A stretch of 64,000 nt of DNA from Candidatus Caldarchaeum sp. (lineage in GTDB: Archaea > Thermoproteota > Nitrososphaeria_A > Caldarchaeales > Caldarchaeaceae): assembly GCA_038844785.1 (NCBI GenBank), contig JAWBRA010000009.1, forward strand, positions 3,295 through 67,294, given 5' to 3'. Below are positions 19,977 through 28,260 of the stretch, piece after piece (the stretch's first letter is position 1; the number at the start of each line of letters is the position of its first letter). The notes under the pieces are model-generated. The model saw only the letters and a program-made list of their open reading frames with translations. It did no database searches and was not told the origin of the DNA. The position numbers and the translations under genes are program-made.

Positions 19977-21023
19977 ATGCCCAAAATAAACAGCGCAGCC
20001 ATAATCGGCTACGGTCTCTACATACCTAGGTACCGAATAAGAGGGGAGGAGTTGGCTAGGGTTTGGGGGAAAAGCAAGTCAGACCTCCCTGTTAAAGAGA
20101 AAGCAGTAGCAGGTCCTGACGAGGACACGGTTACTATGTCGGTGGAGGCGGCGCGCTACGCTTTAAAGAGAGCTGGAGTAGACCCGTCGAAGATCTCGGC
20201 CGTACATGTGGGGACGGAGTCAAAGCCTTACGCCGTCAAGCCAAGCGGCACGCTTGTGGCTGAGATACTTGGCGCCTCTAGGAACACAACCTCAGCTGAC
20301 CTCGAGTTCGCATGCAAGGCAGGGACGGAGGCTGTTCAAATGGTGACAGCCCTTGTCGAGTCGGGAAGAATAGAATATGGCCTGGCGATTGGCGCTGACA
20401 CAGCTCAAGGAAGGCCTGGAGATGCTCTTGAATACACCGCTGCCAGCGGAGCCGCCGCCTTCGTCATCGGAAAAGCCGACAACAGCTGCATAGCTAAGTT
20501 TGAATACTCTGTCTCGGTCGTAACGGACACTCCTGACTTTTGGCGTAGGAGCTATGAGCGATATCCCGTCCACGCCTCCCGGTTCACAGGCGAGCCAGCT
20601 TACTTCCACCACACCCTTACAGCCGTTAACACAATACTGGAGGAGAACGGCTACTCAGTAGATGACATCGACTACTTCGTATTTCATCAGCCAAACGTAA
20701 AGTTTCCACTCACAGCAGCGAAGCTGCTCTCCATACCCAGCTCGAAGATAGCTCCGGGTATAGTTGCGGACGTTGTTGGCAACACATACGCAGCATGCTC
20801 TATGTTGGGCCTCGCTAAAGTGCTTGACATAGCCGTACCCGGCCAAAGAATTCTGATGACATCGTACGGCTCAGGCGCCGGCAGCGATTCCTTCATCATA
20901 ACCGTCTGCGACGGAATCGTTGAAAAAAGAGACAAGGCTCCCACGTTCCAGCAGCTGCTAAGCCGAAACAAGCAGGTTGACTACGCCACTTACTTAAAGT
21001 TCAGAGATAAGATAAGGGTGTAG
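19977..21023 (+). CDS. Hydroxymethylglutaryl-CoA synthase (archaeal type)
   Basis: 348 aa. N-terminus IIGYGLYIPRYRI with a catalytic Cys context (EFACKAGTEA). Followed by thiolase and DUF35 genes, the conserved archaeal trio. Confidence 0.85.
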   Translation: MPKINSAAIIGYGLYIPRYRIRGEELARVWGKSKSDLPVKEKAVAGPDEDTVTMSVEAARYALKRAGVDPSKISAVHVGTESKPYAVKPSGTLVAEILGASRNTTSADLEFACKAGTEAVQMVTALVESGRIEYGLAIGADTAQGRPGDALEYTAASGAAAFVIGKADNSCIAKFEYSVSVVTDTPDFWRRSYERYPVHASRFTGEPAYFHHTLTAVNTILEENGYSVDDIDYFVFHQPNVKFPLTAAKLLSIPSSKIAPGIVADVVGNTYAACSMLGLAKVLDIAVPGQRILMTSYGSGAGSDSFIITVCDGIVEKRDKAPTFQQLLSRNKQVDYATYLKFRDKIRV

Positions 21024-21026
21024 TGT

Positions 21027-22181
21027 TTGAGGGCCTACCTATGCGGAGGTGCTGTCTTAAAAGTTGACGAACACTGGGATAAAAGCCTAGCAAACCTTCT
21101 CGCCGAAGCAGGGTTGAGAGCTCTCGAATCCTCCGGCATCTCCTACGTGGACCATGTATTCATTGCAAACGTTTACGGGGAGGTTTTGCAGGAGCAAGCC
21201 AATCTAGGTACGTTGCTTGCTGAAGAGCTTGGGCTCAGAGGCGTTACGGCAGCACGTGTTGAGGCCGGCGGAGCTTCGGGCTTGTCAGCGATATACGCAG
21301 GATGTTTAGCCGTAAACTCTGGACTTGCCAACGCGGTCCTCGTGGTTGGCGCCGAGAAAATGTCTGACGGAACTGTTGAGGAAGCTGTATCTCTTTTGAC
21401 GATGGAAGAAAGACAAGATTACGTCGGCTTTTTAGGGGTTAGCCAGCTTGCGGAAGCGGCGTTGCTCTACAAGGAGTATCTGAAAAGATACAGAGTGGCC
21501 CCCGAAGACGTTGCTTACTTCACGGTTTTAAGCCATGAGAACTCTTCAACAGCGCCTCACGCCCAATACCAGTTTAAGGTAAGCCTCGAATCTGTTATCA
21601 GCTCGCCCTACGTCGCCGAGCCATTACACAGGCTTGAGACGACAGCACCAGCCGACGGTGCTGCCGCAATACTGGTCTTGTCGCAGGAGCTGGCAAAGCG
21701 GATGAAAGAGCCTAAATGCATTGTTACAGGGATTGGTTTCGCCGCCGATTTCATGACAGCCTTCGACAGAGAGGACCCGCTTGAGATGAGAAGTTTAGCC
21801 GACGCGGGGAGACGTGCTTTGGAGATGGCCGGCATACCGAAGTCAAAGGTGGATTTTATAGAACTCCACGATTCATACAGCATATTGGCGCCGCTATCAC
21901 TGGAGGCTTTGAGTCTTGCCGACAGGGGGCAGGCATGTCTGCAGGCTAGGAAAGGCCGTTTCAGTCTATCGGGTGAAATACCCATAAACACTTTCGGAGG
22001 CCTTAAGGGAAGAGGCTATCCCGTAGGAGCGTCCGGAGTCTACGCGGTGGTCGAGGCTTTTATGCAGCTTACTGACAGTGCTTCGAAAAATCAGGTAGCC
22101 AATGCCGACGTGGGCCTTGTAGAATCTCTGTCTGGCCTAGGGTCTTACGCAGGTGTTGCCGTTCTAGAGAGGGAGAGGTGA
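21027..22181 (+). CDS. Acetyl-CoA C-acetyltransferase (archaeal thiolase)
   Basis: 384 aa thiolase-like protein (SCP-x type) in the conserved position between HMGCS and DUF35. Confidence 0.8.
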   Translation: MRAYLCGGAVLKVDEHWDKSLANLLAEAGLRALESSGISYVDHVFIANVYGEVLQEQANLGTLLAEELGLRGVTAARVEAGGASGLSAIYAGCLAVNSGLANAVLVVGAEKMSDGTVEEAVSLLTMEERQDYVGFLGVSQLAEAALLYKEYLKRYRVAPEDVAYFTVLSHENSSTAPHAQYQFKVSLESVISSPYVAEPLHRLETTAPADGAAAILVLSQELAKRMKEPKCIVTGIGFAADFMTAFDREDPLEMRSLADAGRRALEMAGIPKSKVDFIELHDSYSILAPLSLEALSLADRGQACLQARKGRFSLSGEIPINTFGGLKGRGYPVGASGVYAVVEAFMQLTDSASKNQVANADVGLVESLSGLGSYAGVAVLERER

Positions 22182-22585
22182 GCGAAGTGTCGGTAAGACC
22201 TCCCGCATACTGGCGTTCTAGACCTTTCATATACAGGCTTGAGGGCAGCCGCTGCACCGTATGCGGTCACTTCCATCCATATAAGAGGCTTGTATGCAGG
22301 AGATGCAGGTCTAAACGTTTAGACGAAGACAGACTTCCCTCAAAGGGAAGATTGCTGTATTACACGGTTGTGACGCAGGCGCAGCATGGGTTTGAAAACA
22401 ACACGCCGTACATAGTTGGATTGGTGGAGATAGATGACGGCACCCAGCTTGTTGGCCAGCTGACCGACTGCGATCCAGAAGACCTGAAGCCCGGAACAGT
22501 TGTTGAACCTGTTGTCAGAAGAATAAGAGCCGACGGCGACTCTAGGCTTATTGTGTACGGGGCTAAGTTTAAACCCCTTGTTTAA
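22178..22585 (+). CDS. DUF35 OB-fold / zinc-ribbon protein (thiolase-HMGCS scaffold)
   Basis: 135 aa with a Zn ribbon (CTVCGHFHPYKRLVCRRC) followed by an OB-fold region. Overlaps the thiolase gene by 4 nt. Confidence 0.8.
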   Translation: MSEVSVRPPAYWRSRPFIYRLEGSRCTVCGHFHPYKRLVCRRCRSKRLDEDRLPSKGRLLYYTVVTQAQHGFENNTPYIVGLVEIDDGTQLVGQLTDCDPEDLKPGTVVEPVVRRIRADGDSRLIVYGAKFKPLV

Positions 22586-23361
22586 TGGCTCATAACGCTC
22601 TTCCATACGAGTAGCGTCGCATACTCTCGGGGGATGGCTTCCTGCTGCGCAACCCTTTCTATCTCTGCTCTCAACACGGACTCCGCCCTAGGGCCGTGTG
22701 TCAGCATATAACGTTTTTTAACATCTTCAAACAGCTTTGCTACTTCTTCCTTGCTTGAGGTTAGGTCCGTTATTGTGCGGGGTAGGTCCGACAGTTGTTT
22801 AATCATGTCGTCGACAGTCTTCAATCTGTTTCGGATGCTTGTTAGCTTCTTTCTGAGCTCTGGAATACGGGCTTCCAGCTCCTCCTTCAGTCCCACGTTT
22901 TTCGCGTTTGGTTTATCTCCTTCGAGCTGCATAGTGTTAAGCTCTATGCTGGACCATATTAGCTCCTCTTCGACCTCGGCGAACTCAGAGCCTAAAGCGT
23001 CCCTGGCCCTTTTGAGCTTCTCCAAAACATTTTCCGACTTCACAAGAACAGCTCTCCTTCTCTCTGCTAGACGGCTGAGAATGCTTCGTATAAGCTGTGG
23101 CCTTAATTCATCGAGCTTCATACAGTAGGCGATGAAATTTTTGTCAATGTTCCTAAGCCTCTCAACCTCCTTCATAACCTCGTCGTAGAGCTGGAGCGCT
23201 TCGTCAAGGTCTCCACCTTCCTGTTGCGGCTGAGGCTGAGCCTGCTCCTGCGGTGGCTCCTCTTTCACCACGGGTACCTCCACATCCTGCTGGACAGGCA
23301 AAGCCTCAACCTCAGGAGGCTCCGAAGCCTTTTTCACTTTCAAGACTATTTTTTTCACCAC
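22582..23361 (-). CDS. Hypothetical coiled-coil protein with N-terminal Pro/Gln/Glu-rich low-complexity region
   Basis: 259 aa. Residues about 10-50 are PEVEALPVQQDVEVPVVKEEPPQEQAQPQPQQE, and the remainder is heptad-rich. Same strand as, and immediately downstream of, the JAMM protease gene. Confidence 0.55.
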   Translation of the reverse strand: MVKKIVLKVKKASEPPEVEALPVQQDVEVPVVKEEPPQEQAQPQPQQEGGDLDEALQLYDEVMKEVERLRNIDKNFIAYCMKLDELRPQLIRSILSRLAERRRAVLVKSENVLEKLKRARDALGSEFAEVEEELIWSSIELNTMQLEGDKPNAKNVGLKEELEARIPELRKKLTSIRNRLKTVDDMIKQLSDLPRTITDLTSSKEEVAKLFEDVKKRYMLTHGPRAESVLRAEIERVAQQEAIPREYATLLVWKSVMSH

Positions 23362-23393: not shown

Positions 23394-24002
23394 TCAAATG
23401 CCGAACAGCTTTTTAGCTTTTCCAAGCAGGCCTCCCCCCTCTCCCTCCGATGGATTGTTCGCGGTCTTACCCCCAGACTCTGCAACAATCTGGCGGATGT
23501 CAAACGTGGCCAACGCATGGAGAGTGCTTTCAAGCAGCTTTGTCCTATGTACTCCTATAGAAACTGGGAGGGAGACAACCTTGCCCTCTTTGGAGATTTG
23601 GAAAACCTTGAAATCTAGTGATGAAATTTCTCGGGTTCTTGCGTAGTTTACGGGGTCTATAACCAACGCAACCGCTTTCGGATACATGAGCTGATACCTT
23701 TTTTGAGTGTCTATGTCTGTAGGGGATAGGAAAACGTCCAGCCCAGGATGTGAATGGTACCAGCCAACTATGTAAAGTCCTTTGCCTTCTTGTGCCAACT
23801 GTTCAGCTACACGTGACATCACAGATTCATCGAGTTGGACGTAGGCAGGCGTCCCATACTGCTCGCCCGTCATAGCATCCCATATCTCTAAAACCTTGCC
23901 AGCCGACTTGCCGACCAAAAGGCCAGCCACCTCCTTGTTCAAATTTGCGGTTGAATGCTTAACTATCTTGGCGAGGGCTAGGGGGTATATCCTTACACGC
24001 AT
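23394..24002 (-). CDS. JAMM/MPN+ metalloprotease, Rpn11-like deubiquitinase / pro-ubiquitin processing peptidase
   Basis: 202 aa with the complete JAMM motif: a Glu in EVAGLLVGK, then GWYHSHPGLDVFLSPTD (H-x-H-x7-S-x2-D). Divergent from the Ub-E2-E1-RING operon. Confidence 0.85.
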   Translation of the reverse strand: MRVRIYPLALAKIVKHSTANLNKEVAGLLVGKSAGKVLEIWDAMTGEQYGTPAYVQLDESVMSRVAEQLAQEGKGLYIVGWYHSHPGLDVFLSPTDIDTQKRYQLMYPKAVALVIDPVNYARTREISSLDFKVFQISKEGKVVSLPVSIGVHRTKLLESTLHALATFDIRQIVAESGGKTANNPSEGEGGGLLGKAKKLFGI

Positions 24003-24119
24003 TGGGTAAACAATGGATAAAGGTCAATAATAAGAATGACTTGACATAGGTAGCCTACGCCTCTTTGAATGTTATCGAGATACCTCTCCGGCCGTTTCGG
24101 TGTTTTACACATGGTTAAA

Positions 24120-24129
24120 CCTTATATAC
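24120..24129 (+). promoter_or_regulatory. TATA box (CTTATATA) for Ub-E2-E1-RING operon, leaderless
   Basis: Lies about 25-30 nt upstream of the ATG at 24153, which supports the internal Met (MKIKIV..) as the true start. Confidence 0.45.
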
Positions 24130-24152
24130 GCTCAAAAGAAAAAAACTGCAGA

Positions 24153-24416
24153 ATGAAGATAAAGATTGTTCCCGCAGTTGGTGGAGGTACACCCTTGGAG
24201 CTTGAGGTTTCACCCAACGCGACAGTTGGTGCTGTCAGGACTAAGGTGTGTGCTATAAAGAAGCTTCCCCCCGACACTACTAGGTTGACATACAAAGGGA
24301 GGGCTTTGAAAGATACTGAAACCCTACAAAGCATAGGGGTGTCTGACGGTGATAAATTTGTGTTGATAACTAGGACGGTGGGGGGAGTTGGAAAACCTTT
24401 ACGTGGAGCTGCCTGA
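24153..24416 (+). CDS. Ubiquitin-like beta-grasp protein precursor (Gly-Gly followed by 9-aa C-terminal extension)
   Basis: 87 aa from MKIKIV. The mature 78 residues end ..LITRTVGG, and VGKPLRGAA follows. It carries a ubiquitin-like hydrophobic patch and LTYKGRALKD, comparable to ubiquitin's LIFAGKQLED. The maximal ORF starts at 24069, but the TATA position favours 24153. Confidence 0.8.
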   Translation: MKIKIVPAVGGGTPLELEVSPNATVGAVRTKVCAIKKLPPDTTRLTYKGRALKDTETLQSIGVSDGDKFVLITRTVGGVGKPLRGAA

Positions 24417-24894
24417 GACCGCGTGGTACAAACGTCTGGCGCTCGAGTATTCGTTGATGCAGGAGCATGAGCCTACGTTCAACCCTGTGGAAAACGACCT
24501 CACCCACTACGAGGGCGTAATAATAGGAACAAACATGTATGAAGGCGGGTACTTTAGGGTAGAGATACTTCTCCCACGGTCGTATCCTTTTTATCCACCT
24601 GACGTTGTTTGGCATACTCGTATCTGGCATCCTAACTTTTCCGACAGCGTGCCAGCCCGTGTGTGTGAGTCCGTGTTTAAAGACCATTGGTCGCCGTCTC
24701 TAAGGCTTGTAGCCGTGATAGAGTCTCTTCGAAACCTTTTGAACAACCCAAACCCGGAAGACCCCCTGAACCCTGTGGCGGCGTTCGAGTACAAGAACAG
24801 GCCGGACCTTTTCATGGCTAGAGTTAGACAGTTTATAGAAGAATATGCAACACCTGAGCAGGCGTTTAAACAAAGCAAGCGAAAGGGGCTCTAG
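24388..24894 (+). CDS. Ubiquitin-conjugating enzyme E2 (UBC fold)
   Basis: 168 aa with the HPN motif (WHPNF) and active-site context ARVCESVFKDHWSPSLRL (compare canonical C..L...W.P). The start overlaps the Ub precursor tail by 29 nt. Confidence 0.85.
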   Translation: MENLYVELPETAWYKRLALEYSLMQEHEPTFNPVENDLTHYEGVIIGTNMYEGGYFRVEILLPRSYPFYPPDVVWHTRIWHPNFSDSVPARVCESVFKDHWSPSLRLVAVIESLRNLLNNPNPEDPLNPVAAFEYKNRPDLFMARVRQFIEEYATPEQAFKQSKRKGL

Positions 24895-24896
24895 GT

Positions 24897-26087
24897 TTGG
24901 GTGAAAGCCCCACGCTAGCCAGATACGATAGACAGCTAAGGCTTGATGGATGGGACCAGTACAAGCTGATGTCCGCAAAAGTTGTGATCGCCGGAGTTGG
25001 TGCTCTTGGATGTGAGGCGGCTAAAAACCTGGCTCTGATGGGTGTTGGTGAACTTTTGCTTGTTGATAATGATGTGGTGGAACTGTCTAACCTAAGCCGT
25101 CAGATGTTGTACATGGATGAGGATGTTGGAAAGCCGAAGGCCTTGGTTGCTGAGGACCGCGTTAAAAAAATGAACCCGTCGATCAACGTTGTTGGCCTGC
25201 AGATGGATGTGCGTCAAATTCCCGAGGAGGTTTTCGCGAAGGCTGATGTTCTGGTAAGCTGTGTTGACAACTGGCCTACTAGGAGGTGGATAAACTCTAT
25301 GGCCGTTGAGGTGGGTAAACCGTTAGTAGACATTGCCACAGACGCATACTATGGAAATGTTCAAGTAGTCGTCCCAGGGAAGACGGCATGCATTGAATGT
25401 CATGCTGAGGCCTTGATTCCAACTGAGGTTCAGGCTGCAGAATGTTCTCTTAGGCGGAGAAAGCCGGAGGATTTGATTGCCGAACTCTATGAAAAGGGAA
25501 TATCTTTGGACCGACAGGAGGCTGAAGAGCTTTTCCGACATAATATTAAAACGCTTTATGACATCAAGTATGCTCCGCAAAGACTCGTAGACTCTCTGGA
25601 TGAAAATGTAAGAAGCCTTGTTTTAAGACTTCGTGGTCTTTTAAACCCTAAGATGCCTGCGCTCCAAAGCGTTTCCGCAACCATTGCAGGGTTGGGTGTT
25701 TTCGAAACAGTTAGGATACTGCATAAAGGGCTTCTTGGAAAGCCTTTCAGCGGTTTGTTTATGTACGACGGTCTCAGGGGAAGGTTGACGAAGGTGCAGC
25801 TTGACAGGAACATGTTATGTCACGTGTGCAGCGTGGACGAAGAACAGCCCATAGAGCTGGAGATATCAAACAAGGAAAAAGTTGCCGACATACGGGAGAG
25901 AATCGCCAACAAGTTCATGTTCCCCGACGCACGGATACAGTTTGGTGCGAAGCTTCTCGACGACTCTGCTGAGGTTAGGGAAATCGGCTTAACGGACCGG
26001 GACATCCTGTACGTACACTCGACGAGAAGGGCTACGCCTCTAGCTTTACGGGTGAAAATCCTTGAAGATAGTGATCAAAGAGGTTAA
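24897..26087 (+). CDS. Ubiquitin-activating enzyme E1-like (ThiF/MoeB/UBA fold) with C-terminal ubiquitin-fold domain
   Basis: 396 aa with a Rossmann motif (GVGALGCEAAKNL...LLVDND). Two CxxC pairs (CIEC and CHVC) are as in MoeB/ThiF zinc sites, and there is a candidate catalytic Cys in AAECS. The C-terminal roughly 90 aa are beta-grasp-like. It begins 2 nt after the E2 stop. Confidence 0.85.
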   Translation: MGESPTLARYDRQLRLDGWDQYKLMSAKVVIAGVGALGCEAAKNLALMGVGELLLVDNDVVELSNLSRQMLYMDEDVGKPKALVAEDRVKKMNPSINVVGLQMDVRQIPEEVFAKADVLVSCVDNWPTRRWINSMAVEVGKPLVDIATDAYYGNVQVVVPGKTACIECHAEALIPTEVQAAECSLRRRKPEDLIAELYEKGISLDRQEAEELFRHNIKTLYDIKYAPQRLVDSLDENVRSLVLRLRGLLNPKMPALQSVSATIAGLGVFETVRILHKGLLGKPFSGLFMYDGLRGRLTKVQLDRNMLCHVCSVDEEQPIELEISNKEKVADIRERIANKFMFPDARIQFGAKLLDDSAEVREIGLTDRDILYVHSTRRATPLALRVKILEDSDQRG

Positions 26088-26292
26088 CGCAGGGTTCTGG
26101 AACCCTTTCGAAGATGAGGATAGAACGAAGCAGAAGCTTAATTTCTGCGTTATCTGCGGGCTTGAAATTTCAAACGAAAAAACATATTCATGCCCCCACT
26201 GTGGTTCTGTGGGGCATATGTCATGTTTTGACGACTGGCTGCTGATAAGAAAGTCATGCCCGCTGTGCAGGAGGCCTATAGCGGAGGGATGA
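26062..26292 (+). CDS. Small RING-type (C4HC3) zinc finger protein, putative E3
   Basis: 76 aa with C-x2-C-x11-C-x2-C-x4-H-x2-C-x10-C-x2-C (CVIC..CPHC..H..C..CPLC), plus a Trp in the last loop as in RING E2-binding surfaces. Overlaps the E1 3' end by 26 nt. Confidence 0.8.
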   Translation: MKIVIKEVNAGFWNPFEDEDRTKQKLNFCVICGLEISNEKTYSCPHCGSVGHMSCFDDWLLIRKSCPLCRRPIAEG

Positions 26293-26298
26293 ACCAAT

Positions 26299-26610
26299 AT
26301 GGCTGAAGAAAAGAACGAAAAAGTCATAGAGCTCGACTTTTTGGAGACTCCAAAAGGCCCTGTAGCTCGTTTTGACGGAGTTAAACAGCTTGCCGAGTTG
26401 GTTGTAGAGGTTTTTCAAGAGTTGGAAAAGTTGAATGAAAAAATCAAATCCTTTGAGAAGGAGGAAAAAGCACCGGAGAGTATCGAAAGAAGGTTGAAGG
26501 ACATAGAGGACCAGCTTGCTGTCCTTTCGGACGACATGCGTGAGATACTGAACGCCCTGGGAGAGCTTTCTGCCACAGTAGCCCAGCTTAGGAAAGCCCT
26601 CAAATTATGA
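26299..26610 (+). CDS. Small coiled-coil protein, possible distal member of Ub operon
   Basis: 103 aa, highly charged and heptad-rich (ELEKLNEKIKSFEKEEK..., DIEDQLAVLSDDMREILNALGEL). Starts 7 nt after the RING gene stop. Confidence 0.5.
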   Translation: MAEEKNEKVIELDFLETPKGPVARFDGVKQLAELVVEVFQELEKLNEKIKSFEKEEKAPESIERRLKDIEDQLAVLSDDMREILNALGELSATVAQLRKALKL

Positions 26611-27438
26611 GGTTAGAAAAGCACGTCTCATCTCAGTTATCAGCTCGTTCAGCTCAGCCCTCCGTTTCTCCATCTGTGCAACCTCGTTCGAAAGAGATTC
26701 TTTATAGGCTTCGAGCTTGTTGATTTCTTCTTTAAGCTTGTTGGCTGTCGCTATCAATTTCTCAGCCTCAGCCTTGCTGTTTTCGAGAATAGCAAGCTTA
26801 TCCTCCAGCTCCTTCTCCCTACGTATCATCCGCTCCATTCTGATCTCTCTGAGCTTGAACATTTTGTCCATCTCTTTTCCAAAGCTTTCAAGCTTCTTCT
26901 GAGAATCTTCAAAGGCGGTCAAGTAACGCTCCTTAAGCATGTTTATCTCCTCCTCCAGACTCTCCTTTTTACGCATTAAGTCCTTTAGGGTTTCTTGGGC
27001 TTCGGCTATCTGCCGCTCTTTCTGCTCAAGCTCTGCTTTCCAGCGAGCCACCTCTTCTCTCAGCATCGCTAAGCTTTCTCTCTCAGTTTTGTATCGTTGA
27101 GCTTCCTTCATAAGGTTCTCCCTTTCCTTGAACAGCAAGTCAGCTGTTTCATGCAAGCTTTCACGCAAGGACTTAATCTCCTCCGTTACCGCTTTTAAAG
27201 AGTCTAGTGTGTAGTCCAACACGGCAGTCTTTTCAAGCAAGCCCTGCAAACGAGCCATAGACTTATGAGGTGTTGAAAACTGCTCAAGAACCAACCTTAC
27301 GTCCTCCTTGATTTTGGCCAACGCCTCCTCAACAAGCCCTATTCTCTCCTCCATCCGTTCAGTGAGCTGGACCCTTAGAGCAGCAACCTCTTTGCGGAGG
27401 TCTGCTATGCTGTCGGGCCTTTTGGAAAGCAGCCCCAT
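26605..27438 (-). CDS. Long coiled-coil protein
   Basis: 277 aa that is almost entirely heptad-repeat charged sequence (E/K/R/L rich). Convergent with, and overlapping, the 103-aa coiled-coil gene by 6 nt. Confidence 0.55.
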   Translation of the reverse strand: MGLLSKRPDSIADLRKEVAALRVQLTERMEERIGLVEEALAKIKEDVRLVLEQFSTPHKSMARLQGLLEKTAVLDYTLDSLKAVTEEIKSLRESLHETADLLFKERENLMKEAQRYKTERESLAMLREEVARWKAELEQKERQIAEAQETLKDLMRKKESLEEEINMLKERYLTAFEDSQKKLESFGKEMDKMFKLREIRMERMIRREKELEDKLAILENSKAEAEKLIATANKLKEEINKLEAYKESLSNEVAQMEKRRAELNELITEMRRAFLTS

Positions 27439-27570: not shown

Positions 27571-28260
27571 ATGGTGGTGTCTGAGCAGCGGCTTCTGATA
27601 AGGTTTTTTAAGCTAGGGTCGTTGCTTGCACTGGTAGGCAGCATACATATTCTCACGCTTCTTCTCCCGTGGTATGTGGTGAGGGCCGACACTGTTTCCA
27701 GAACTATTGTCAGCGGGTATCTCCTGCTTGAGACGCTTCTTCTGTCGGTCATGGGAGGGGTTTTGGCAGGCGTGTCCCTCCTTGCCACATCATTCTCGAC
27801 TAGGGCAGGGGTTGTCAGAATTGTGTTGTCGGTTCTAGCTATTCTGGGAGGGGTTTTAGCCTTGTTCTCCCCGATATACTTAAACCTCATCATAATACCG
27901 CGTCTCAACGTCGCAGGAGAGCCAGACCTTGGTTTTTTCGCATCTCTTTTCTCAGCAGTTGCTCTAATTGCGCTCGGCCTTATAGTGGTTTTAACAAGGC
28001 CTCAGAAAGTTGAGCTACCCTACCCCGGCTACTACGGGATGTCAGAGATCACAACACCTTCGGCGCCGGCTGAGCAGACAACGATGGAGCCTGTGGACAC
28101 GGTTGACGAGGGGGTTGTTTGTCCAATATGCTACACGACGGTTACGGCGGAAAACGCTGTCAAATGCTCCTCCTGCGGCGTAGTCTTCCACTCGGGCTGC
28201 GCCGACGCATACGTCAACATCAACGGAACATGTCCAAACTGCGGCCGAGCAGTTGTTTAA
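27571..28260 (+). CDS. Membrane-anchored (4 TM) protein with C-terminal C4HC3 RING-like zinc finger; paralog of the small RING E3
   Basis: 229 aa with four hydrophobic helices in the first about 150 aa, then a soluble linker. The C-terminus is C-x2-C-x11-C-x2-C-x4-H-x2-C-x9-C-x2-C (CPIC..CSSC..H..C..CPNC), the same spacing as the small RING protein at 26062. Confidence 0.7.
   Translation: MVVSEQRLLIRFFKLGSLLALVGSIHILTLLLPWYVVRADTVSRTIVSGYLLLETLLLSVMGGVLAGVSLLATSFSTRAGVVRIVLSVLAILGGVLALFSPIYLNLIIIPRLNVAGEPDLGFFASLFSAVALIALGLIVVLTRPQKVELPYPGYYGMSEITTPSAPAEQTTMEPVDTVDEGVVCPICYTTVTAENAVKCSSCGVVFHSGCADAYVNINGTCPNCGRAVV

Follow-up and report, generated by a model that had tools for sequence, protein, structure and literature searches.

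The subject of this report is a cassette of five genes at positions 23394-26292 of a 64,000-nucleotide (nt) stretch of contig JAWBRA010000009.1 from a Candidatus (Ca.) Caldarchaeum species; the whole stretch is called the window below. The five open reading frames (ORFs) encode a JAMM protease on the minus strand and pro-ubiquitin (Ub), an E2, an E1 and a small RING finger protein (srfp) on the plus strand, and they were found where the initial annotation had placed them. With a probability of about 0.93, the cassette is an intact chromosomal orthologue, in a Ca. Caldarchaeum species, of the eukaryote-like ubiquitylation system of Ca. Caldiarchaeum subterraneum, whose components carry the prefix Cs in the following text. 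All five proteins scored above the curated cut-offs of Pfam. By orthology to the reconstituted Cs system, the enzymes of the cassette are predicted to be catalytically active in the present species as well.

The pro-ubiquitin matched the Pfam ubiquitin family (PF00240) at 1.5e-12, with 47.5 bits against a cut-off of 25.4. Its mature part comprises residues 1-78 and terminates in TVGG (G77-G78), followed by a propeptide of nine residues, VGKPLRGAA, encoded at 24387-24413. The match to the solved structure of CsUb (PDB 2MQJ) reached 9.4e-48, and 72 of the 78 mature residues (92%) were identical; the CsUb entries 6FJ7 and 5ZEW were matched as well. The propeptide has the same length as that of Cs and a different sequence (VGKPLRGAA here vs CGEPIRRAA in Cs). 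The lysines K4, K53 and K68, which are the chain-linkage sites reported in PMC5654768, can be read from the present sequence. Judged by this identity, the protein is a near-orthologue of CsUb. The Ub ORF spans 24069-24416, and its start was taken as the ATG at 24153, in agreement with the public gene call and with CsUb. A longer form of 115 amino acids beginning at 24069 was considered and rejected: it is disfavoured by the promoter geometry described below, since its extension crosses a conserved TATA box, and both CsUb and the public calls start with MKIKIV.

The protease matched Pfam JAB at 2.6e-21, and a script confirmed the JAMM motif as E24...H83-x-H85-x7-S93-x2-D96. Its match to the crystallised CsRpn11 (PDB 6FJU) had an E-value of 1.2e-101 and 78% identity over aligned residues 1-201. 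The next-best PDB matches were eukaryotic Rpn11 (1.7e-20) and CSN5 (1e-15). By these values the protein is a near-orthologue of CsRpn11. Its gene is transcribed divergently from Ub, with 150 nt between its start and the Ub ATG, and so has the opposite-strand position of Rpn11 in operons of the Caldiarchaeum type.

The E2 belongs to the Pfam family UQ_con (PF00179; 2.6e-30, 105 bits against a cut-off of 27), and its best PDB matches were the eukaryotic UBC8, UBC4, UbcH5 and E2-K at about 1e-25. A script located HPN at 81-83, C93, WSP at 101-103, PFYPP at 67-71 (loop 4) and HWSPS at 100-104 (loop 7). The protein therefore carries the set of motifs defined for stand-alone UBC proteins, namely HPN, a catalytic cysteine, PxxPP and D/ExWSP (PMC5654768). 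Among the residues mutated in the Cs studies, P67, P103 and S104 are present, and Phe68 replaces the Tyr of Cs. The UBC fold and the HPN motif had been proposed from the first reading of the DNA and both were upheld, but the active site has the spacing C-x7-W-S-P and not the C-x-W-S-P given at that time. The N-terminus MENLYVELPE resembles that of published CsE2 (MESQYVELPE), which supports the TTG start of E2 and hence its overlap of 29 nt with Ub.

The srfp gene, situated directly after E1, encodes a small RING protein as in the Caldiarchaeum-type operon. It matched zf-RING_2 (PF13639) at 2.3e-9, with 37.8 bits against a cut-off of 27.3, and RING-H2 proteins of known structure (Arkadia, RNF38, EL5) at about 1e-6. 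Residues 29-69 fit the pattern C-x2-C-x11-C-x2-C-x4-H-x2-C-x10-C-x2-C exactly when searched as a regular expression, and this spacing is identical to the motif published for CSUB_C1477 (PMC3082918). With a putative offset of +1, the residues I31, W59 and R70 appear to correspond to I30, W58 and R69, which were functionally tested in Cs (PMC5654768).

Four parts can be distinguished in the E1: the adenylation domain, a helical insert that follows Cys183 of the crossover loop, a zinc site formed by two CxxC pairs and, at the C-terminus (about 319-389), a ubiquitin-fold domain (UFD). It matched Pfam ThiF (PF00899) at 6.3e-59 (199 bits), and GVGALG at 33-38, CIEC at 165-168 and CHVC at 308-311 were located by script. 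The protein thus combines a GxGxxG motif, a four-cysteine zinc site, a crossover-loop cysteine, a helical insert of the eukaryotic type and a C-terminal UFD. Among PDB entries the adenylation domain was closest to the eukaryotic UBA1, UBA7 and UBA3 (1e-37 to 1e-32), and ThiF and MoeB ranked behind them. The cysteines C165, C168, C183, C308 and C311 were invariant in 52 E1 homologues. An AlphaFold model built from these 52 homologues had a predicted local distance difference test (pLDDT) score of 88.9, with helices within 190-248 and a beta-grasp fold at 319-389. The top Foldseek match of the model was UBA3 (3GZN_B) with a template modelling (TM) score of 0.71, and it extended over the full length including the C-terminal beta-grasp domain, while the structures of ThiF and MoeB matched the adenylation core only. 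The same template, 3GZN, was also reported for CsE1 (PMC5654768).

The ThiF-like adenylation domain raises the question whether the cluster could be a sulfur-carrier system or a system of the small archaeal modifier protein (SAMP) type, in which a ThiS/MoaD-like protein is activated by an E1 of the ThiF/MoeB/UbaA kind and no true E2/E3 cascade follows. The NCBIfam models of ThiF, MoeB and UbaA do match the adenylation domain at 1e-41 to 1e-31, but all the scores fall far below the respective cut-offs (ThiF TIGR02356, 142 vs 275; MoeB NF006444, 138 vs 449; UbaA NF047750, 109 vs 450), and for the protease the desampylase model NF041370 gave 28 vs 130. UBA3 matches the E1 over its full length, whereas ThiF and MoeB match the adenylation part without the insert and the UFD. 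A genuine UBC-type E2, a RING protein and an Rpn11-type JAMM protease are co-encoded, and the modifier belongs to the Pfam ubiquitin family and needs removal of a propeptide. We consider this explanation very improbable.

Hardly more credit can be given to the view that the cluster is a bacterial anti-virus operon for conjugation of ubiquitin-like proteins, acquired by horizontal transfer and related to Cap2/Cap3 of the cyclic-oligonucleotide-based antiphage signalling system (CBASS), to Bil or to 6A-MBL. The PADLOC models for E1-E2 (Cap2) matched the Rossmann region of the E1, at best with 1.7e-21 and 74 bits, and the PADLOC JAB models matched the protease weakly (1.2e-7). These matches are confined to the common Rossmann and JAB cores, however, and eukaryotic E1 and Rpn11 were matched far more strongly; the E2 barely matched (8e-3), and Ub and the RING protein had no PADLOC match. 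The E1 and E2 are separate genes here and are not fused as in Cap2. The housekeeping surroundings of the cassette and its fixed chromosomal position across genera are also unlike a mobile defence island.

The lineage of the locus agrees with the orthology. The E1 has 100% identity with a protein already on record for a Candidatus Caldarchaeum sp. metagenome-assembled genome (MAG), and the public gene calls agree with ours. Its identity to the E1s of hundreds of Caldarchaeales (formerly Aigarchaeota) was 47-95%, and to the E1s of MAGs labelled C. subterraneum or Caldarchaeum sp. it was 52-67%. The cassette has the same GC content as its flanks and is surrounded by housekeeping genes: an HMG-CoA synthase/thiolase/DUF35 trio, a class II aminoacyl-tRNA synthetase, citrate synthase, a haem-copper oxidase and DNA polymerase B. 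The distribution of the genes was surveyed in 61 species-representative Caldarchaeales loci, and counts are given as loci with the gene among the loci with enough flanking sequence. Ub was present in 53 of 57 eligible loci and E2 in 52 of 57, followed by srfp (45/58) and JAMM (41/55). The gene order of the cassette is conserved across Caldarchaeales, and its place in the chromosome is the same from genus to genus. Among proteins of known structure, the nearest to the E2, the E1 and the RING protein are eukaryotic, which would be expected if the DNA were a eukaryotic contaminant or a recent transfer from a eukaryote. This origin is the least probable of all those weighed. The genes are intron-free, overlapping and TTG-started, and they form a prokaryotic operon with archaeal TATA-like boxes; the GC content is uniform, the synteny extends over the order in 61 archaeal species representatives, and the encoded proteins share no more than about 20-35% identity with eukaryotic ones.

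These results bear out what had been proposed for the region, with small corrections of detail. The initial annotation read it as a eukaryote-style set of E1, E2, E3 and deubiquitylase and not a SAMP/E1-only system, and all the families passed their cut-offs while the SAMP models stayed far below theirs. Its reading of a ubiquitin-like protein ending in Gly-Gly holds for G77-G78, with the propeptide behind it. Its ThiF-like E1 with two CxxC pairs and a C-terminal ubiquitin fold was recovered through the Pfam ThiF match, the CIEC and CHVC motifs, and the AlphaFold model with its UBA3 match; its small C4HC3 RING in the last gene through the exact motif and the zf-RING_2 match; and its divergent Rpn11-like protease with H-x-H-x7-S-x2-D beyond a 150-bp intergenic region through the motif, the 6FJU match and the spacing. 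The profile searches that it suggested placed the 168-residue protein in the UBC family and gave the 396-residue protein adenylation-domain homology, both in Pfam and to UBA1, UBA7 and UBA3. The resemblance to the Ca. Caldiarchaeum subterraneum operon was confirmed by the identities of Rpn11 and mature Ub and by the equal RING spacing, and the guess of an Aigarchaeota-like lineage proved right, as the DNA comes from a Candidatus Caldarchaeum sp. MAG of the order Caldarchaeales.

The genes of the cassette are tightly packed. Ub and E2 overlap by 29 nt, E2 and E1 are separated by 2 nt, and E1 and srfp overlap by 26 nt, or by 17 nt when the alternative srfp start is used, as the public records differ in this start (TTG or GTG; 76 vs 73 amino acids). 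These distances had been described correctly from the first reading, but only two of the three junctions are overlaps and the last has two possible values. Stoichiometric co-expression had also been deduced; the tight packing fits with it, but it is an argument from packing and the coupling is not obligatory. In Ca. Terraquivivens tikiterensis (loci L004 and L052), about 2 kb are inserted between E2 and E1 (at about 4000-6000 in L004) with the rest of the block intact, which indicates that tight E2-E1 coupling can be dispensed with. The insert holds two opposite-strand fragments of CitMHS transporter genes and a small TnpB/Cas12f-like zinc-ribbon ORF.

The intergenic region between JAMM and Ub was aligned with those of eight relatives (n = 9). 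A TATA-like TTATATA occupies 24122-24128, which is 25-31 nt upstream of the Ub ATG, and the surrounding GTTAAaCCTTATATAyGC is kept in all nine regions. A second TATA-like box, AATAATAA (plus strand, 24026-24033), precedes the minus-strand JAMM ATG by 24-31 nt. On the JAMM side, TAATAAgAATGAC is well conserved over the nine regions with some substitutions. The distances from these boxes to the start codons suggest two divergent archaeal promoters with very short leaders or none. Shine-Dalgarno-like motifs of the GGAG/GGTG type precede E2, E1, srfp and the next gene, and none precedes Ub or JAMM. The presence of such motifs on internal cistrons and not on the first one is the usual pattern. Ub, E2, E1 and srfp, probably together with the following gene for a 103-residue protein, would form one tightly packed operon read from the Ub-side TATA box. 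Between the TATA-like boxes, two further blocks, TTTGAATGTTATCGAGATA (24064-24082) and TCGGTGTTTTAC (24097-24108), are conserved in the Caldarchaeum relatives and may be the binding site of a regulator.

HMMER aligned Cys183 of the E1 (AECSLRR) with the CTLK cysteine of UBA1-type E1s. We take this position to be that of the catalytic cysteine, following the PROSITE active-site pattern of E1 enzymes, so the thioester cysteine is most probably Cys183 in the crossover loop.

Several points weigh against the orthology as set out above. E2, E1 and srfp start with TTG, and the start of srfp varies between public records. The Pfam match of the UFD in E1 was below threshold (1.3e-3), and this domain is supported by the AlphaFold model and the full-length UBA3 match instead. 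The catalytic role of Cys183 depends on an alignment and the PROSITE pattern, and the operon boundaries and leaderless transcription are predicted from the sequence. The activity of the system is predicted through a relative whose E1 shares only 52-67% identity.

If the cassette works like its Cs counterpart, a reaction sequence can be proposed. The divergently transcribed Rpn11-like protease would strip VGKPLRGAA from pro-ubiquitin and expose Gly77-Gly78. The E1 would adenylate the C-terminal glycine of ubiquitin and then bind ubiquitin in thioester linkage, with Cys183 as the most probable site. Its UFD would recruit the E2, and ubiquitin would pass to Cys93 of the E2. The srfp is predicted to bind loops 4 and 7 of the E2 and to stimulate discharge to substrate lysines and to K4, K53 and K68 of ubiquitin. 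The JAMM protease may also reverse the modification.

The five-gene system is already known: the cassette is orthologous to the type system, both belong to one genus, and the sequence has already been deposited. The ubiquitin cluster of C. subterraneum (CSUB_C1473-C1477) was first described in 2011 (Nunoura 2011, PMC3082918), and an in vitro reconstitution of the cascade followed in 2017 (Hennell James 2017, PMC5654768). In that study Rpn11 cleaved the nine-residue propeptide, E1 and E2 auto-modified, srfp was needed for substrate ubiquitylation, and chains were formed at K4, K53 and K68 of ubiquitin. The structures of CsUb, CsRpn11 and the CsUb-CsRpn11 complex were solved in 2018 (Fuchs 2018, PMC6043591), and a survey of the same year found the full component set in six of six Aigarchaeota genome bins (PMC6053391). 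The novelty of the cassette is low for these reasons. For the question of how eukaryotic ubiquitin signalling arose, no prokaryotic model has been studied better than this system, but that point was made in 2011 and secured by experiment in 2017-2018, and a further orthologue from the same genus adds little to it. The positions of the cassette genes and of the conserved neighbours are collected in Table 1.

Table 1. Cassette genes, control region and conserved neighbours, with positions counted from the first letter of the window.
Feature	Position	Strand	Basis
259-residue coiled-coil protein, cc259	22582..23361	-	32 nt downstream of JAMM gene, same strand
Rpn11-like JAMM metalloprotease, 202 residues, predicted pro-ubiquitin processor/deubiquitylase	23394..24002	-	Pfam JAB, CsRpn11 match
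Divergent control region, 150 nt	24003..24152		alignment of nine intergenic regions
Pro-ubiquitin, 87 residues	24153..24416	+	Pfam ubiquitin, CsUb match
E2 ubiquitin-conjugating enzyme, 168 residues, TTG start	24388..24894	+	Pfam UQ_con, eukaryotic E2 PDB matches
E1 ubiquitin-activating enzyme, 396 residues	24897..26087	+	Pfam ThiF, UBA PDB matches, AlphaFold/Foldseek
Small RING finger protein srfp (E3), 76 residues; 73 if start at 26071	26062..26292	+	Pfam zf-RING_2
Conserved 103-residue protein p103, probable fifth cistron	26299..26610	+	position, Shine-Dalgarno-like motif, synteny
277-residue coiled-coil protein cc277, conserved neighbour	26605..27438	-	synteny
Membrane-anchored RING protein, 229 residues, candidate second E3	27571..28260	+	Pfam zf-RING_2, hydropathy

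Four further genes flank the cassette. The start of p103 lies 6 nt past the srfp stop and is preceded by the Shine-Dalgarno-like GGAGGGATGA. The gene has the same position in relatives, with a gap of 3 nt in L002 and an overlap of 4 nt in L004, and it is probably the fifth cistron of the Ub operon. Both ends of the protein are strongly conserved (N-terminal LETPKGPVARF, C-terminal LNALGELSATVAQ). No Pfam family was found for p103. Its AlphaFold model shows a beta-hairpin and a helical hairpin (pLDDT 81), and a fold search against the PDB gave no match below E = 0.5, only generic helical hairpins. All the homologues found were unannotated Caldarchaeum-type proteins, and the JGI labels on them ('prefoldin subunit 5', 'FlaC') were judged spurious. 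The cc259 gene behind JAMM is probably co-transcribed with it, and its position is the same in Caldarchaeum and Terraquivivens loci. For p103, cc277 and cc259, the Pfam and NCBIfam searches returned only sub-threshold coiled-coil noise (SMC, Rad50, prefoldin, arcadin-4).

The membrane RING protein matched zf-RING_2 at 1.4e-8 and has about four hydrophobic segments (residues 12-147), followed by a C-terminal RING at 184-224. The C4HC3 spacing of this RING is exactly that of srfp, with 36% identity between the two RINGs (4e-10). In most genera the protein retains the E2-binding Ile and Trp and, behind the last Cys, a basic residue (the linchpin Lys); these are the counterparts of the residues on which E2 stimulation by Cs srfp depends. 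Within the genus Caldarchaeum, including the window, the Trp is changed to Tyr and the basic residue after the last Cys is shifted by one position. The supplement of PMC5654768 reports only small RING proteins in archaea. Our literature search, which included work after 2018, retrieved no description of an Aigarchaeota membrane RING, only reviews and Asgard papers on the endosomal sorting machinery ESCRT. As far as the Cs-operon papers could be searched, p103, cc277 and the membrane RING are not discussed in them.

A tentative proposal is that the functional unit is larger than the cassette and comprises a conserved module of nine genes, with the membrane RING as a second E3 and with p103, cc277 and cc259 as adaptors, regulators or physiological substrates. 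The block is syntenic over several Caldarchaeales genera: cc277, on the opposite strand, was found in 40 of 52 eligible loci, the membrane RING (about 230 residues) in 35 of 46 and p103 in 32 of 56. For cc259 the count was 24 of 53, probably an undercount because its conservation is weak. The proposal gains from the way p103 abuts the srfp stop with its Shine-Dalgarno-like motif, from the RING spacing shared with srfp and from the counterparts of the E2-stimulating srfp residues kept in most genera. In vitro, moreover, Rad50 was modified by the Cs cascade at lysines of its coiled coil (PMC5654768). On the other hand, the class II aminoacyl-tRNA synthetase is equally syntenic (34/46), and synteny alone is no proof of function, so plain chromosomal collinearity stays a serious alternative. 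The cc277 gene is on the opposite strand, the membrane RING of the window's own genus has Tyr for Trp and lacks a basic residue directly after the last Cys, the coiled-coil proteins belong to no family, and the fold search with p103 gave nothing. We therefore regard the nine-gene module as rather doubtful. If true, membrane-bound RING ligases such as Hrd1 or MARCH would have an archaeal forerunner in it, and it would give a first handle on the physiological targets of archaeal ubiquitylation. The substrate used in PMC5654768 was a heterologous Rad50. The membrane RING paralogue and the coiled-coil proteins are concrete, testable candidates for substrates or recognition factors.

Some of the surveyed loci depart from the common arrangement of the five-gene cassette. 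In seven loci from Calditenuaceae and relatives (L055, L057-L059, L062, L065, L066), Ub-E2-E1 is kept and neither RING nor JAMM was found within the 8-kb flank. Four others (L033, L035, L044, L046) keep Ub-E2-E1 with JAMM and cc259 upstream and have no RING within the 8-kb flank. The RING and JAMM components of such lineages may be elsewhere in the genome or lost. In a MAG labelled Ca. Caldarchaeum subterraneum SZUA-1515 (L001/L063), archaellum genes (flagellin, a KaiC-like ATPase and a FlaI-type T2SSE ATPase) lie upstream of Ub in the usual place of JAMM, and the contig ends just after E1.

Farther upstream in the window, an HMG-CoA synthase-like gene, a thiolase gene and a DUF35/OB-fold (ChsH2-type) gene stand in a tight row on the plus strand at 19977-22585. 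They are presumably the thiolase/HMGCS/DUF35 trio that belongs to the mevalonate pathway in archaea. These three genes are kept upstream of the cassette in Caldarchaeum, in HR01 and in one Nitrososphaerota MAG (L017). Rfam called a tRNA at 10568-10631 on the plus strand with 33.2 bits (gathering score 29); ARAGORN found no tRNA anywhere in the window. The call may be a marginal match or else an archaeal tRNA that is atypical or contains an intron.

Among the known systems, the operon of Ca. Caldiarchaeum subterraneum is the closest to the present cassette. The two share the gene order and orientation, with Rpn11 on the opposite strand followed by Ub-E2-E1-srfp, the nine-residue propeptide after TVGG, the spacing of the RING cysteines and histidine, the HPN, loop-4 and loop-7 motifs of the E2 and the build of the E1, which has a UBA3-like fold with the UFD at its C-terminus. 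They differ in species and in the sequence of the propeptide, and the present locus is a genomic record only.

The Ub/E1/E2/RING clusters of Asgard archaea have the same set of components and the same 'Cluster I/II' groupings of E1 and E2 (PMC5654768), and their E1s, which often have a ubiquitin-like domain at the C-terminus, are 29-39% identical to the E1 of the cassette. Among 11 Asgard-labelled loci that were fetched, an E2-like match was present in five, JAMM or RING in one (L074) and Ub in none, and the loci with an E2 match had a gene order unlike that of the present locus. Linkage to ESCRT genes is frequent in Asgard clusters (PMC11188069), whereas none of these genes were seen beside the cassette.

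The eukaryotic NEDD8/ubiquitin cascade, with an E1 of the UBA3 type, an E2 of the UBC4/5 type, RING-H2 proteins and Rpn11/CSN5, agrees with the cassette in folds, catalytic motifs and reaction order. Unlike in eukaryotes, the E1 here is one chain of 396 residues without a separate inactive adenylation subunit and presumably works as a homodimer. Its putative catalytic cysteine is at the start of a small helical insert and there is no large cysteine domain. The RING is C4HC3 and not C3H2C3, the genes are arranged in an operon, and the archaeal Rpn11 acts as a free enzyme, unlike its eukaryotic counterpart (PMC5654768, discussion). The SAMP/UbaA/HvJAMM1 system of Haloferax resembles the cassette in that its modifier is a beta-grasp protein with GG at the C-terminus, which is served by an activator of the E1 kind and by a JAMM isopeptidase. 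That system works without an E2 and a RING protein, while both are present here.

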